A stretch of 64,000 bases of DNA from Thermomonas sp. (GTDB lineage: Bacteria; Pseudomonadota; Gammaproteobacteria; Xanthomonadales; Xanthomonadaceae): the NCBI GenBank assembly GCA_020692565.1, contig JAIMKJ010000012.1, positions 26,347 to 90,346 of the forward strand. The letters are read 5' to 3'. The first letter of the stretch is position 1; each line of letters starts with the position of its first letter. The notes under the pieces are model-generated. The model was not told where the DNA came from and made no database searches. It was given only the letters and a program-made list of their open reading frames with translations. Both the position numbers and the translations under genes were made by a program. Of this stretch, positions 9,250 to 41,097 are shown one piece after another.

Positions 9250-10173
9250 ATGACAGATACCGACCCCGATTTCCTCCGCGTCCGCGACTACCTCACCGGC
9301 CTGCAAGACCGCATCTGCGCCGCGATCGAGGGCGCCGACGGCGGCGCGACCTTCCAGGAAGATCGCTGGGAGCGCGCCGAGGGCGGCGGCGGACGCACGC
9401 GGATCCTGCGCGACGGCGCGGTGTTCGAGCAGGCGGGGGTCGGGTTCTCGGATGTCTCGGGCACCACGCTGCCGCCGTCGGCGACCGCCGCGCGGCCGGA
9501 GCTGGCCGGTGCGTCGTGGCGTGCGGTCGGGGTGTCGCTGGTGTTTCATCCGCGCAATCCCTACCTGTCGACCACGCACGCCAACGTCCGTCATTTCCGC
9601 GCGATGCGCGATGACCAGACTGTGGCCTGGTGGTTCGGCGGCGGCTTCGATCTGACGCCGTTCTATCCTTTCGACGACGACGTGCGCCATTGGCACCGGA
9701 CCGCGCGCGAGTTGTGCGAACCCTTCGGCGGCGCCGAACGCTACGCGGCGCACAAGCAGTGGTGCGACGAGTATTTCTTCCTCAAGCACCGCAACGAAAC
9801 CCGCGGCGTCGGCGGGCTGTTCTTCGACGATCTGCACGGCGACTTCGAGCGCGACTTCGCGTATCAGCGCGCGGTCGGCGACGGATTTCTCGACGCCTAC
9901 CTGCCGTTGGTCGAACATCGCAAGGACACGCCTTATGGCGAGCGAGAACGCCAGTTCCAGCTTTACCGCCGCGGCCGCTACGTCGAATTCAATCTCGTGT
10001 TCGACCGCGGCACCCTGTTCGGCCTGCAATCGGGCGGACGCACCGAATCGATCCTGATGAGCCTGCCGCCGCTGGTGCGCTGGGAATACGGCTATACGCC
10101 GGAGGCCGGCAGCGACGAAGCGCGGCTGCAGGATTACCTCAAGCCGCGGGATTGGTTGGGCGAGGCTTCGTAG
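9250..10173 (+). CDS. hemF: Oxygen-dependent coproporphyrinogen III oxidase
   Basis: [51 protein letters not shown]. Confidence 0.97.
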
Positions 10174-10911: not shown

Positions 10912-11032
10912 TAAAAAGCCCCGCAGGTGGGGGAACCGGCGGGGCTGGGAACGGGACTTGGGGAGAGTCTTACGTTCCGGCGACCACTCCAGGGGAGGGA
11001 GTGGTCTGCGACGGACGTTGCATCCGTCGCGA
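10912..11032 (-). ncRNA. sX13-like small RNA
   Basis: Downstream of polA on the same strand; three hairpins with C-rich loops (CUCCC, CUCCCCA, UUCCCCCA); the last is followed by a U tract, matching the described Xanthomonadaceae sX13 position and fold. Confidence 0.75.
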
Positions 11033-27307: not shown

Positions 27308-28027
27308 ATGTTCCGTCTAGGTCTGCTTGCGACATTCTCCGCACTGATTCTGACCGGCTGCGTCAGTACTTACGCGTATCGCGGCGCTGATGGCGGGGAT
27401 TACTACTATTCCGAGCCCTCGGTGCAGTATCACGACGTCTATGGCGCACCGTACAGTTCGATAGGTTACGGCTATCCCGGCGGCTGGTACGGGAGTCTGG
27501 GCTTCGGGTTCGGCTACGGTCACGTCCCCTATTCGCGCTTCGGCTTCCCTTACCGCTACGGCAATTACCGCTACGGGTACCCGTATTCGTATTACCCCTA
27601 TCCACATCGCCGGCCGCACCATCCGCGCCCGCCGCACGTGACGCCCCCGGGCACGCCGCCGCCCGGTGTGATTGATCCGCCGCCCGGCAACGGCGGCCCG
27701 CAGATCGGCGATCGCGACCGCGAAGGCGGCCCGTGGCGTCATCTCGACCGGCGGCGTCGTCCCGAAGCGATTCCGATGCCCGGCAGTCCGCCCGCGATGG
27801 TGGTGCGGGACGATCGCCCGCAGCGGCGGATCATGGTGCCCCAGCCCGGGTTGCGGGTCGGCGGGGATGGGTCGCCCGGCGCGGTGCCGCAGGTGCGTCG
27901 CGCCCCGGTGTCAGCGCCCCAGCCCGCGGCGCAACCGCGGCCGCGCATGGAGTCGCCGCGGCCTTCGCCGCCCCAGCGCCGCATTGAACCGCGGGAACGA
28001 GAATCCCGTCGCGATACGACGCCCTGA
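27308..28027 (+). CDS. Tyr/Gly- and Pro/Arg-rich low-complexity lipoprotein
   Basis: Lipobox LTGC; GGDYYY; GY-rich segment followed by P/R-rich tail. Confidence 0.75.
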   Translation: MFRLGLLATFSALILTGCVSTYAYRGADGGDYYYSEPSVQYHDVYGAPYSSIGYGYPGGWYGSLGFGFGYGHVPYSRFGFPYRYGNYRYGYPYSYYPYPHRRPHHPRPPHVTPPGTPPPGVIDPPPGNGGPQIGDRDREGGPWRHLDRRRRPEAIPMPGSPPAMVVRDDRPQRRIMVPQPGLRVGGDGSPGAVPQVRRAPVSAPQPAAQPRPRMESPRPSPPQRRIEPRERESRRDTTP

Positions 28028-28109
28028 AAGCCCTTGCCAAGCGCCTGAATTGGTCGCAAGCTAAACCAGTCTGACCGGTTGCGTCGGAATCCGACGTATC
28101 ACGGTAAGA

Positions 28110-28440
28110 ATCGCCGACCCCCGGCGGGGAAATCCGGATCCCCCCTGTTCCGCTCCCCGTCGGGCGTCGGCACCTAAGTCAGTAAGGCGCGGCGCACCCG
28201 TGTCTTTCCGGGACGCCCGGAACCCTCCCTCTTGAATCAGATATCGAACCTCTCGGGTCGATGGTGATCATGGGCGATGCGCGCGACTGTTCCGGATCGC
28301 GGACATCGGCAGATGAAAACACGCAGACAAAAAAAGGGGCCGAATGTCCCCCGACATTCGGCCCCTGGCTCCCTCAACGCGCACGTGGCCAGCCCTGTTC
28401 CACCCCGGCCTGCGCTTTCGCGCATGCCGCGCTGAGTGCC
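28110..28440 (-). ncRNA. Candidate sigma54-dependent sRNA locus with three GGAACAG-loop hairpins
   Basis: No convincing CDS; sigma54 promoter, intrinsic terminator at 28329-28365, repeated loop motif at 28145, 28287 and 28395. Confidence 0.55.
28329..28365 (-). terminator. Intrinsic terminator of the candidate sRNA
   Basis: GGGGCCGAATGTC/GACATTCGGCCCC 13-bp stem followed by 7 U on the minus strand. Confidence 0.85.
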
Positions 28441-28450
28441 ACTTGAGATA

Positions 28451-28467
28451 AGCAGATTGCGTGCCAA
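28451..28467 (-). promoter_or_regulatory. sigma54 (RpoN) -24/-12 promoter
   Basis: Minus strand TTGGCACGCAATCTGCT with GG-N10-GC spacing. Confidence 0.7.
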
Positions 28468-28602
28468 CTTTGGCGCCGAACTCTCGGCGCCGCGGCTCAC
28501 CGGGAACGCCATTCGTTAGAATGCGGGCCAGACCCAAGGTGGCGCGATGCCGCGCGGCCCTCCCTCCAGGTCGCGGCAACGACTGCGACGACAGGTACCC
28601 AG

Positions 28603-30489
28603 ATGAACGACTTCTACCGCTTCGACGTGATCGTCATCGGCGGCGGCCACGCCGGCACCGAAGCCGCGCTCGCGTCGGCGCGCGTCGGCGCGCGCACGTT
28701 GCTGCTCACGCACAACATCGAAACCGTCGGCGCGATGAGCTGCAATCCGGCCATCGGCGGTATCGGCAAGGGGCACCTGGTCAAGGAGATCGACGCGCTC
28801 GGCGGAATCATGGCCCGCGCCGCGGACGCCGCCGGCATCCAGTGGCGCCGCTTGAATGCGTCGAAAGGCCCGGCGGTGCGCGCCACCCGCTGCCAGGCCG
28901 ATCGCGCGCGCTACCGCAGCTTCATCCGTCGCGCGGTGGAATCGCAGCCGGACCTGACCGTGTTCCAGTCGGCGGTCGACGACATCATCATCGAAGGCGA
29001 TGCCGTGCGCGGTGCGATCACCCAGACCGGCCTGCGTTTCGAAGCGCCCGCGGTGGTGCTGACCGCAGGCACCTTCCTCGCCGGCAAGGTCCACATCGGC
29101 GAGACCCAGTTCGCCGCCGGCCGCGCCGGCGACCCGCCGGCGACCACGCTCGCCGCGCGACTGCGCGAGCGCCCGTTCCAGGTCGACCGGCTCAAGACCG
29201 GCACGCCGCCGCGCATCGACGGTCGCAGCCTCGATTATTCGGTGATGGAAGAACAGCCCGGCGACGATCCGCGTCCGGTGTTCTCGTTCATGGGCAGCGC
29301 CGCCGATCATCCGCCGCAGATCTCGTGCTGGATCACGCACACCTCCGAGCGCACCCACGAGATCATCCGCAACGCATTGCACCGCTCGCCGCTCTACAGC
29401 GGCCAGATCGAAGGCATCGGCCCGCGCTACTGTCCGTCGATCGAGGACAAGGTGGTGCGCTTCGCCGAGAAGGCATCGCACCAGATCTTCGTCGAGCCCG
29501 AAGGCCTCGATGTGACCGAGATCTATCCGAACGGCATCTCGACTTCGTTGCCGTTCGACGTGCAGCTCGATCTGGTGCGCAGCATCCGCGGCTTCGAGCG
29601 CGCGCACATCACCCGCGCCGGCTACGCGATCGAATACGACTTCTTCGATCCGCGCGGGCTGAAGAATTCGCTGGAGACCAAGCTCGTCGCCGGCCTGTTC
29701 TTCGCCGGTCAGATCAACGGCACCACCGGCTACGAAGAAGCGGCCGCGCAGGGGCTGGTCGCCGGGCTCAACGCCGCGCGCCACGTGCGCGGGCTCGATG
29801 CCTGGTCGGCGCGTCGCGACGAGGCCTACATCGGCGTGCTGATCGACGATCTGATCACCCACGGCACCAAAGAGCCGTATCGCATGTTCACCAGCCGCGC
29901 CGAATACCGGCTGCAACTGCGCGAAGACAATGCCGATCTGCGCCTTACCGAGACCGGTCGCGGCCTGGGTCTGGTCGACGATGCGCGCTGGGAACGCTTC
30001 GCCCGCAAGCGCGATGCGGTCGTCGCCGAAACCGGGCGCCTGGGCGCGCTGTGGGCCTCGCCGAACAACGCGCTCGGCCGCGAGGCAGTGGCGACGCTGG
30101 GCATCGAACTCAGCCGCGAAACCCATGCGCTGGATCTGCTGCGCCGGCCCGAACTCGATTACGCCAAGCTGCTGAGCGTGCCGATGCTCGGCCCGGCGGT
30201 GGAGGATGTCGCCGTTGCCGAGCAGGTCGAGATCGAAGCGAAGTATTCCGGCTATCTCGCGCGCCAGCGCGAGGAGATCGCGCGCCAGCAGCGTCACGAA
30301 CACACCGGCATTCCGGAAGGTTTCGACTATGCGGCCGTGCGCGGCCTGTCGTTCGAGGTGCAGCAGAAACTCGAGCGTGTGCGCCCCGAAACCGTGGGTC
30401 AGGCGCAGCGCATTCCGGGCATGACCCCGGCGGCGATTTCGCTGCTGCTGGTGCACCTGACGCGCCAGCGCCGCGGCGCCGCGGCCTAG
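28603..30489 (+). CDS. mnmG: tRNA uridine-5-carboxymethylaminomethyl modification enzyme
   Basis: [61 protein letters not shown]. Confidence 0.98.
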
Positions 30490-39510: not shown

Positions 39511-41097
39511 TCAGCCGCGTACCCGCTCCCAGTCCAGATCGAAGCGGGCGAGGTATTTGCGCAGCCGGTCGGCGTCGTTGGTGCTGCTGCGCTGCGTGCG
39601 CGATACCGCGAACAGCGTGCGTCCGGCGTCGGACAGTGATTTCGCCTGTAGGCAGACGCGTACCACGTCCTCCAGCTGCGTGCGGTCGAAACGATCGAGT
39701 CCGGCGACGCCATCGCCCAGCAGCGCATCCAGCGGCGACGGCGCCCCGCCTTCGCGCCACAGTCCGCGCAATCGCGCGATTTCCTCTTCGACCAGTTCGA
39801 TCTGGATGCGGCCGGCGTTCGCCAGCGTCGCCATGCGCATCACCGCAGCGCCGAGGTCGCGGAAGTTGCCGGCCCAGCGCGCTTCGGGGCTGGTCGCGAA
39901 TGCGAGGAATCGCGTTCGCGCTTCGCGGTTGAACGCGACGCGCTGGTGGTGGTCGCGGCTCCAGCGTTCGAGTTCGAAATCGAGGTTGGGCTCGATGTCT
40001 TCCATGCGCTCCGCCAGGCCCGGCAGGCGATAGGTCCACAGATTGAGTCGCGCCAGCAGGTCGTCGCGGAAGCGGCCCTGCATCACCGCGTTCTGCAGAT
40101 CGCGATTGGTGCCGGCGATCAGCTGGAAGTCGCTTTCGACCTCCTTGTCGCTGCCCACCGGCGGGAAGCGCTTCTCTTCCAGCGCGCGCAGCAACAGCGC
40201 CTGTTCGTCCAGGCCGAGTTCGCCGATCTCGTCGAGGAACAGCAGCCCCTGATGCGCCGAGCGCAGGAAGCCGGCGCGGTCGCTGCCGGCGCCGGTGTAC
40301 GCGCCCTTGATGTGTCCGAACAGCGCGCTCATCGCGCCGTCGCCGCGCAGCGTGGCGCAGTTCACTTCGACGAAGCGTCCGGGCAACTGGTGCTTGAGTT
40401 TCTTCAGCTCGAACACGCGCTTGGCGAGTTGGCTCTTGCCGGCGCCGGTCGGCCCCATCAGCAGCATCGGCGCCTTCGAGCGTGAGGCCACGGTCTCGAT
40501 CTGCTCGATCATCCGGTTGAACGCGGCATTCCGCGTGGCGATGCCGCTTTTCAGCAGATCGCGATCCTCCAGGCGCTGCTGCTGGAAGCGCTGCGCGATC
40601 AGGTCGTACCGCGACAGGTCCAGATCGATGATCGCGAAGCTGCCGCTCTGACCGCGCTCCTGTTTGCGAGGCGGCGACGTCTGCAGCAGCCGGCCGGGGA
40701 AATGCCGGCTCTCGGCGAGCAGGAACCAGCAGATCTGCGCGACGTGCGAACCGGTGGTGATGTGGATGTAGTAGTCCTCATCGTCCGGCTTGAACGCGTA
40801 GCCGCGCAGGAAATCGTGCAGCGTCGCGTAGACGCCTTCGAAATCCCAGGGGTCGGTCAGGAAAGTGTCGTGGCGGCGCAGCGTGGATTCGGGCGAGATC
40901 TGCGCGAAGTCGTCCGCCACCGTCTGCGCAAGCCGGCCGTAGCGGCGCTCATCGACCAGCAGCTCGAAACGATCGACCACGAAGTCCTCGTGCATGCCCA
41001 GCGAGACCGTGGGCCGCCATTTTTCCCAGCGCCCGGGGCCATTGCCGGCGTCGAGCTGGGTGCCGAGCATCCCGAAGATGACTTGCTGCTTGCGCAC
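39511..41097 (-). CDS. rtcR: sigma54-dependent RNA-repair regulator (CARF + AAA+ + HTH)
   Basis: RWEKWRPTV, HITTGSHVAQIC, GPTGAGKS, FLDEIGEL, GNFRDL, NDADRLRKYL. Confidence 0.95.
   Translation of the reverse strand: MRKQQVIFGMLGTQLDAGNGPGRWEKWRPTVSLGMHEDFVVDRFELLVDERRYGRLAQTVADDFAQISPESTLRRHDTFLTDPWDFEGVYATLHDFLRGYAFKPDDEDYYIHITTGSHVAQICWFLLAESRHFPGRLLQTSPPRKQERGQSGSFAIIDLDLSRYDLIAQRFQQQRLEDRDLLKSGIATRNAAFNRMIEQIETVASRSKAPMLLMGPTGAGKSQLAKRVFELKKLKHQLPGRFVEVNCATLRGDGAMSALFGHIKGAYTGAGSDRAGFLRSAHQGLLFLDEIGELGLDEQALLLRALEEKRFPPVGSDKEVESDFQLIAGTNRDLQNAVMQGRFRDDLLARLNLWTYRLPGLAERMEDIEPNLDFELERWSRDHHQRVAFNREARTRFLAFATSPEARWAGNFRDLGAAVMRMATLANAGRIQIELVEEEIARLRGLWREGGAPSPLDALLGDGVAGLDRFDRTQLEDVVRVCLQAKSLSDAGRTLFAVSRTQRSSTNDADRLRKYLARFDLDWERVRG

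Follow-up and report, generated by a model that had tools for sequence, protein, structure and literature searches.

The window, by which we mean the whole 64,000-nucleotide stretch of Thermomonas sp. DNA that was analysed, contains a 575-bp gap (28028–28602) between two plus-strand genes. The upstream gene encodes a protein whose start, MFRLGLLATFSALILTGC, is a lipobox-containing lipoprotein signal and which is rich in Tyr, Gly and Pro thereafter; it matched no Pfam or NCBIfam family, and its 61 homologues are all named 'hypothetical'. The downstream gene is mnmG (gidA). On the minus strand of the gap lies a small RNA gene, preceded by a sigma-54-type promoter and divergent from mnmG, and on the plus strand the end of the lipoprotein gene is followed by a series of predicted hairpins. 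These features, together with a further small RNA gene elsewhere in the window, are as follows, each with the evidence from which it was drawn.

27308–28027, plus strand: gene of the Tyr/Gly/Pro-rich lipoprotein, lipobox LILTGC (translation)
28033–28061, plus strand: hairpin a, CUUGCCAA...UUGGUCGCAAG, directly 3' of the lipoprotein stop codon (genus alignment)
28080–28098, plus strand: hairpin b, UGCGUCGGAAUCCGACGUA, preceded by a conserved UGACCGG at 28072–28078 (genus alignment and folds)
28113–28171, plus strand: hairpin c, the long conserved hairpin of the predicted lipoprotein 3'UTR (covariation, G-U count and minimum free energy)
28136–28151, plus strand: invariant loop segment of hairpin c, GGAUCCCCCCUGUUCC (columns invariant in 86 sequences)
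28282–28301, minus strand: CGCGA/TCGCG hairpin with GGAACAG (window genome only)
28330–28366, minus strand: intrinsic terminator of asX1, a 14-bp stem (28366–28335) with the conserved apex GUCGGGGGAC and a U-run (fold and Rfam consensus)
28393–28401, minus strand: core of the apical loop of asX1 hairpin 2, GGAACAGGG (Rfam consensus)
28438–28330, minus strand: asX1 sRNA gene, Rfam RF02235 (cmscan and fold)
28467–28451, minus strand: sigma-54-type −24/−12 promoter, TTGGCACGCAATCTGCTT, GG-N10-GC (read directly)
28603–30489, plus strand: mnmG (gidA), divergent from asX1 (Pfam GIDA, E = 1.3e-169)
10912–11019, minus strand: sX13, RF02232 (61.1 bits)

The asX1 gene and its sigma-54-type promoter

A cmscan search matched 28438–28330 on the minus strand to RF02235, scoring 84.9 bits where the gathering score is 70; the match spans model positions 1–115 and is thus full-length. 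The other Rfam families reported over the gap at E ≤ 10 were noise (traJ_5, sR34, mir-4654). The transcript of about 110 nt beside mnmG is the already catalogued Xanthomonadaceae sRNA asX1, so that an earlier, sequence-only reading of this DNA, which had taken it for an undescribed family, was mistaken on this point; its description of an RNA gene of about 110 nt with a GAAA-loop hairpin and an intrinsic terminator was sound, the terminator stem being 14 bp long and followed by a T-run. From its 5' end, the RNA consists of a closing stem, a GCGC-GAAA-GCGC hairpin, hairpin 2 and the terminator, and the predicted fold has z = −5.9. The Rfam consensus places GGAAcA in the loop of the second hairpin, which makes the first of three GGAACAG copies noticed in that reading a defining feature of the known family; this loop is near-invariant over about 90 loci, which bears out the proposal that GGAACAG(GG) is a conserved loop feature, as far as asX1 hairpin 2 is concerned. 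The G-rich apex GUCGGGGGAC of the terminator is the second conserved G-rich apical sequence in the molecule.

asX1 was first found in X. campestris pv. vesicatoria in 2012 (Schmidtke et al., NAR, PMC3300014), as an RNA of 116 nt that ran at about 110 nt on Northern blots and gave very few dRNA-seq reads. Bands of up to 900 nt were ascribed to alternative termination, and neither the promoter class nor a target is given in that paper. RNA-seq counts from X. campestris pv. raphani show that asX1 is expressed (PMC4652430, supplement), and it has also been detected in Xylella (PMC12189769). The table in PMC4652430 lists, in order, gidA, a 303-nt 'hypothetical' ORF on the strand opposite asX1, then asX1, and a convergent hypothetical gene of 543 nt with clear expression, placing the X. 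campestris gene in the same gidA/mnmG neighbourhood as the copy in the window. The two RNAs share the 5' stem, the GGAACA loop and the terminator, with no structural difference between the family and the window copy. The antisense 303-nt ORF (strain CFBP 5828R) is probably spurious and is a possible reason why the RNA was named as antisense ('as'). The TT058 fragment, from the intergenic region XC0389/XC0390 (PMC7694677), may also be asX1.

Searching with the Rfam model, we found a single asX1 in the whole of the window's own genome, matches in 22 of 24 same-genus genomes, and one copy per genome in 160 of 201 Xanthomonadaceae genomes, representing 55 of 64 genera. Diverged asX1-like genes that the Rfam model misses are present both within the family and in its sister families.

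The −24/−12 promoter that had been read at 28467–28451 was confirmed as correctly spaced (GG-N10-GC), and it is conserved in every locus with upstream sequence, amounting to about 90 loci in more than 55 genera. In the window, TGGCACG-N4-CTGC is located 12 nt 5' of the Rfam-defined asX1 end, with a predicted start at about 28440. TGGCAC-N5-TGC stands at this fixed distance in all 22 same-genus loci for which upstream sequence is available, in all 30 of the best diverse asX1 loci and in 40 further loci (one per genus), where the one degenerate case still keeps GG-N10-GC; it also precedes the diverged asX1-like genes, in the family as well as in the sister families. The strict pattern is rare, with 12 matches in the whole 4.2-Mb genome, including those of glnA and the rtc operon. 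Because the promoter is kept family-wide at a fixed distance and the pattern is rare in the genome, we strongly infer that asX1 is under sigma-54 control. A sigma-54 link was not found in the searchable literature mentioning asX1, nor was any report there of its sigma-54 promoter or of the partner 3'UTR hairpin described below. The asX1 promoter is absent from the list of a Xylella RpoN-regulon study, since the scan used there covered only the coding-strand regions upstream of annotated genes.

About seven enhancer-binding-protein genes are present in the genome, the one within the window being RtcR, 12 kb from asX1. A conserved enhancer site upstream of the −24 element was not found in the same-genus alignment or in other genera; the genus alignment shows only the mnmG −10 box there (TAGAAT, on the other strand). 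In four Xanthomonas-like loci (L024, L027, L039 and L047), a CRP/Clp-type palindrome, TGTGA-N6-TCACA, is situated about 40–70 nt upstream of the −24 box, in the interval separating the mnmG promoter from the divergent asX1 promoter; the window's genus and other genera lack it.

Further sigma-54-related features were seen in the same genome. The RtcR-type enhancer-binding protein, with RtcR and Sigma54_activat domains, is encoded at 39511–41097 on the minus strand, and divergent from it a strong sigma-54 promoter, CTGGCATGGCGATTGCAA, at about 41219 (plus strand) presumably drives the rtc RNA-repair operon. Outside the window, an orphan strong promoter of this type, GTTGGCATGGGGTTTGCTT, at C58:~17772 (plus strand), is not followed by an evident start codon within 90 nt and may drive another sigma-54-dependent non-coding RNA.

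Sigma-54-dependent sRNAs are known from other bacteria, among them NrsZ (controlled by NtrC), CrcZ/CrcY (CbrB), Qrr1–5 (LuxO) and GlmY/GlmZ (GlrR). The CrcZ/Y and Qrr RNAs are also mentioned in PMC8657755. asX1 resembles all of these in its −24/−12 promoter, its intrinsic terminator and, presumably, its dependence on the signal of one enhancer-binding protein, but has no sequence or structural homology to any of them: it shows neither NrsZ's three-module repeat, nor CrcZ's A-rich Hfq/Crc motifs, nor the seed of the Qrr RNAs. Membership of the NrsZ family was rejected, as asX1 is, apart from noise, the sole Rfam match at E ≤ 10 and the locus is that of the lipoprotein gene and mnmG, not ntrBC.

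A conserved hairpin downstream of the lipoprotein gene

The third GGAACAG copy lies in a stretch of about 170 nt whose conservation in the same-genus alignment far exceeds that of the flanking sequence, and which recurs in 29 of 30 diverse loci. With a strict pattern, its loop was found in 89 of 93 loci, 134–577 nt from the asX1 start; of the four loci missed, at least three have a loop variant which a covariance model still detects. This stretch holds hairpin c, whose outer stem has 17 bp. The loop of the hairpin, GGAU(C/U)CCCCCUGUUCC, is invariant in 86 sequences, and an inner GGA/UCC stem leaves a C-rich loop at the apex.

On which strand this hairpin acts as RNA was judged from an alignment of 86 loci with 21 base pairs, read on the plus strand. 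In it, 90.2% of the cells were paired, compared to 37–53% when the partners were slid by 1–3 columns, double-sided changes were seen at 13 pairs, and the covariation score was reached by 0 of 500 shuffles. Cells that form a valid pair only on the plus strand (as G-U) numbered 217, against 20 valid only on the minus strand (as A-C), and the predicted plus-strand fold was the more stable one in 72 of 86 loci, by a mean of 4.4 kcal/mol (minimum free energy). We therefore read hairpin c as a plus-strand RNA, because its stem has A-C and C-A mismatches on the asX1 strand where the plus strand has G-U pairs. Read in this direction, the hairpin displays CCCCCCUGUUCC and not GGAACAG.

An orthologous Tyr/Gly/Pro-rich lipoprotein ORF stops 110–175 nt before the loop of hairpin c in every genus examined, which places the element in what would be the 3'UTR of the lipoprotein mRNA. 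Two smaller hairpins precede it. The arms of hairpin a, GCTTGC/GCAAGC, are conserved and present across genera, with a C-G to U-A change in one locus (L012), and hairpin b shows A-U/G-U alternation on the plus strand in the genus alignment. Downstream of hairpin c, most genera have a GC stem whose U-run is better on the plus strand; an obvious plus-strand terminator at this place was not seen in the window's own lineage.

Hairpin c had no matching Rfam family at E ≤ 10. A covariance model built on it scores 83.1 bits at 28100–28183 in the window and finds exactly one copy in 182 of the 201 family genomes, in 61 of 64 genera; weaker single matches, with the same loop and the same mnmG neighbourhood, occur in four sister families of the order. 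By these comparisons, hairpin c is an unlisted, conserved, single-copy RNA motif, predicted to be a structured cis-element of an mRNA 3'UTR.

The three GGAACAG copies

CTGTTCC occurs on the plus strand of the gap at 28395, 28287 and 28145, corresponding to GGAACAG on the minus strand. The sequence-only reading had placed all three copies in the loops of minus-strand hairpins, with stems GGCCGG/CTGGCC for the first, CGCGA/TCGCG (28301–28282) for the second and 18-nt arms (28113–28130 and 28154–28171) for the third. These sequences and stems do exist; the second copy is a product of chance, as far as can be judged, and the third belongs to an RNA of the opposite strand that carries the complement. 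The triple recurrence is uninformative by itself and lies within chance: in the window, 582 other 7-mers occur three or more times on one strand within 358 nt without overlap, compared to about 200 in first-order Markov simulations, and GGAACAG is over-represented in it, with 19 copies against 5.3 expected.

Conservation separates the copies. Exactly two are present in the 22 same-genus relatives, one at +37 and one at a variable +171 to +307, so that the first and third copies are conserved and the middle one (+145, 28287) is absent from all 22 and found only in the window locus (L001), within a spacer that is not alignable between relatives; the middle copy is most likely a chance occurrence.

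These results bear on the model put forward in the earlier reading, of one long or processed minus-strand RNA with GGAACAG in three loops, serving as an RsmA/CsrA sponge or as a set of tandem sRNAs sharing a seed. Rsm/Csr sponges present several GGA motifs, typically four or more, in loops or single-stranded stretches of a single transcript. asX1 shares with RsmY, RsmZ, CsrB and RsmU a GGA in a hairpin loop, but its transcript has one loop GGA in all, far from the multi-GGA design of these sponges, and no GacA-type control is apparent. Besides the presence of three copies with stems, and of a loop GGA in asX1, which would suit such a model, there is a middle copy confined to the window genome, a third stem that needs the G-U pairs of the plus strand (217 against 20), a distance between the first and third copies that ranges from 134 to 577 nt, a genome (G043) with the copies on opposite DNA strands, and the commonness of triple 7-mer recurrence in the window. 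With one copy attributable to chance and another on the opposite strand, the idea of an RsmA sponge or of tandem sRNAs loses its basis, and we regard this model as very improbable; there is no multi-GGA architecture, and in place of a shared seed there are two complementary loops, one in asX1 and one in the UTR. RsmU (PMC7694677) was also rejected as a counterpart of asX1, as it derives from the comEA 3'UTR, another locus, and is found in Xanthomonas only.

Complementary loops of asX1 and the lipoprotein 3'UTR

The two RNAs are tightly linked. The hairpin c model finds a match in all 160 asX1-positive genomes, and asX1 is present in none of the 19 genomes without hairpin c, with two whole genera having neither. 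Five loci with hairpin c and no Rfam asX1 match were examined, and all have a diverged asX1-like gene with a sigma-54 promoter.

As RNA, the asX1 loop GGAACAGGGG and the UTR loop CCCCUGUUCC are complementary, and about 80 of 89 loci retain this match over 10 nt; within the UTR loop (28136–28151), the part complementary to asX1 is CCCUGUUCC. When all pairs of 10-mers between asX1 and the UTR were scanned for duplex energy, corrected for the cost of opening each site, the loop-loop pair ranked first in the window at −11.1 kcal/mol, and it was the top pair in 5/5 genomes tested, including a Xylella-like genome and one with inverted asX1, at −10 to −12 kcal/mol. Opening the asX1 10-mer UGGAACAGGG costs only 0.3 kcal/mol. 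A genome-wide RNAduplex scan with the asX1 loop and its closing stem was discarded, being swamped by GC-rich chance duplexes.

Sequence changes at the two loops are few and point in more than one direction. The Xylella-like genome has altered both loops (GGAAUAGGGG / CCCCUAUUCC), which is the one clear compensatory event for the pairing, and a genome with GGAGCAG in the asX1 loop retains the pairing with the UTR through G-U. In three genomes the asX1 loop has lost 1 nt and the UTR shows no corresponding change, other genomes have uncompensated changes at the ends, and part of the conservation of UGUUCC is explained by the inner GGA/UCC stem of hairpin c.

Two inversions are informative. In genome G043 (L095, C14:687300–688700), asX1 and its sigma-54 promoter are inverted and share a strand with the UTR and mnmG, with both loops unchanged, such that the loops are complementary as RNA yet form no direct repeat in the DNA. 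By its coordinates, asX1 at G223:C30:34424–34785, between the lipoprotein 3'UTR and mnmG, is inverted too. Retention of the loops in these genomes argues against any model that needs the GGAACAG copies on one transcript, and also against a purely cis-antisense one.

In a classical cis-antisense arrangement, read-through of the asX1 terminator would yield a long minus-strand RNA over the 3'UTR and coding region of the lipoprotein gene, and the loop match would be incidental. The asX1 Northern signals of up to 900 nt (PMC3300014) would fit such read-through, as would the convergent arrangement of asX1 and the lipoprotein gene that is kept in almost all genomes. However, the strong 14-bp terminator with its U-run speaks against read-through, most genera have a second hairpin with a flanking A-run and T-run between asX1 and the UTR RNA, read-through in G043 and G223 would not be antisense and both loops are nonetheless kept, and this account leaves the invariant complementary loops unexplained. 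We give it little credence.

We instead consider it somewhat probable that asX1, driven by sigma-54, forms a kissing interaction with the 3'UTR loop of the neighbouring lipoprotein mRNA. asX1 would be transcribed from its sigma-54 promoter, and would therefore depend on an enhancer-binding protein and its signal, and would end at its own terminator. The convergent lipoprotein mRNA would have a structured 3'UTR that displays the invariant C-rich loop, and this loop and the hairpin-2 loop of asX1 would form a kissing complex of 9–10 bp. Through such pairing, the sigma-54 signal could govern how stable the lipoprotein mRNA is or how it is processed, or act likewise on a fragment derived from its 3'UTR; alternatively, the UTR could titrate asX1. 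RpoN dependence, pairing in vivo and the regulatory outcome are all things we infer.

OxyS-fhlA is an established loop-loop 'kissing' pair of sRNA and target, and GadY-gadX an example of regulation at the 3' end. asX1 and the lipoprotein UTR resemble these systems in having a short complementarity between two apical loops and a regulator that is convergent at the 3' end of its presumed target. asX1 differs in that it does not overlap its partner and that its pairing is a predicted one.

A different role for the two loops is suggested by sX13. The C-rich apical loop of hairpin c (AUCCCCCCUGU) closely resembles the sX13 loops AUCCCCUG, CUCCCCA and UCCCCCUG, and the logic of pairing between G-rich and C-rich loops is the same; the two are not homologous, hairpin c giving no Rfam match and being part of a predicted mRNA 3'UTR, not a free-standing sRNA gene. 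In the sister families, moreover, the asX1-like loop keeps only CAGGGG and the UTR loop is invariant over 16 nt, and because the UTR loop stays invariant while its counterpart drifts, something besides asX1, either another partner or a structural constraint, probably also constrains it. The C-rich UTR loop might mainly serve another partner, either a protein or, should the 3'UTR be processed into an sRNA, G-rich sites on mRNAs as for sX13, with asX1 acting as a decoy or sponge for RNAs with C-rich loops (the UTR fragment, sX13) and not as a regulator of the lipoprotein mRNA. The second G-rich apex of asX1, in its terminator, would also fit this role. Against it, within the family the UTR loop is complementary to asX1 over 10 nt, compared to 6 nt for sX13, asX1 and the UTR hairpin always lie side by side and disappear from genomes together, and nothing points to a processed UTR or to a protein that binds it. 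We consider it unlikely, although less so than the cis-antisense arrangement.

The sX13 copy in the window itself has three C-rich loops, CCUCCCCU, CUCCCCA and UUCCCCCA, which are complementary to the G-rich loops of asX1. Elsewhere in the same genome, outside the window, a perfect 9-bp hairpin at C68:~10070–10115 has the loop UCCCCCCUGUUCCC, with 13 nt identical to the 3'UTR loop. It is located about 35 nt upstream of a gene for a 492-aa ParB-N/DNA-methylase protein, in a leader with repeated GGTTTGC words, and may have arisen by chance (about 0.3 such matches expected in the genome) or be a second site complementary to asX1, carried on a mobile element. The genome also has at least ten copies of a REP-like element, TCCCCCCTTTGAAAAAGGGGGGCAGGGGGGATTTGCT, in which a C6/G6 hairpin precedes CAGGGGGGATT; sites outside the window include C3:36955, C3:29115, C17:55927, C17:130036, C22:18266 and C31:26410.

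Returning to the kissing of asX1 and the lipoprotein 3'UTR, a wider version may be put forward tentatively, as a possibility that we hold in some doubt. asX1 and the UTR could form a two-RNA module extending across the order, in which the G-rich loops of sigma-54-made asX1 dock on the invariant, sX13-like C-rich loop in the 3'UTR of this uncharacterised envelope lipoprotein's mRNA, and possibly on sX13 as well, so that asX1 would be both a 3'UTR-directed regulator and an anti-sRNA within a Xanthomonadales network of C-rich loops and G-rich motifs.

To what was known of asX1, our comparisons would add a conserved sigma-54 promoter, a wider distribution and a candidate partner hairpin. The locus also illustrates that a same-strand 'repeat' in raw sequence can turn out to be two RNAs complementary to each other. 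For more than 10 years, asX1 has been listed in Xanthomonas, Xylella, Stenotrophomonas and their relatives with no promoter class, target or function attached to it. The conserved sigma-54 promoter points to the condition in which asX1 would be made, namely that sensed by one enhancer-binding protein, and the complementary loop 100–300 nt away offers a concrete first target for this RNA.
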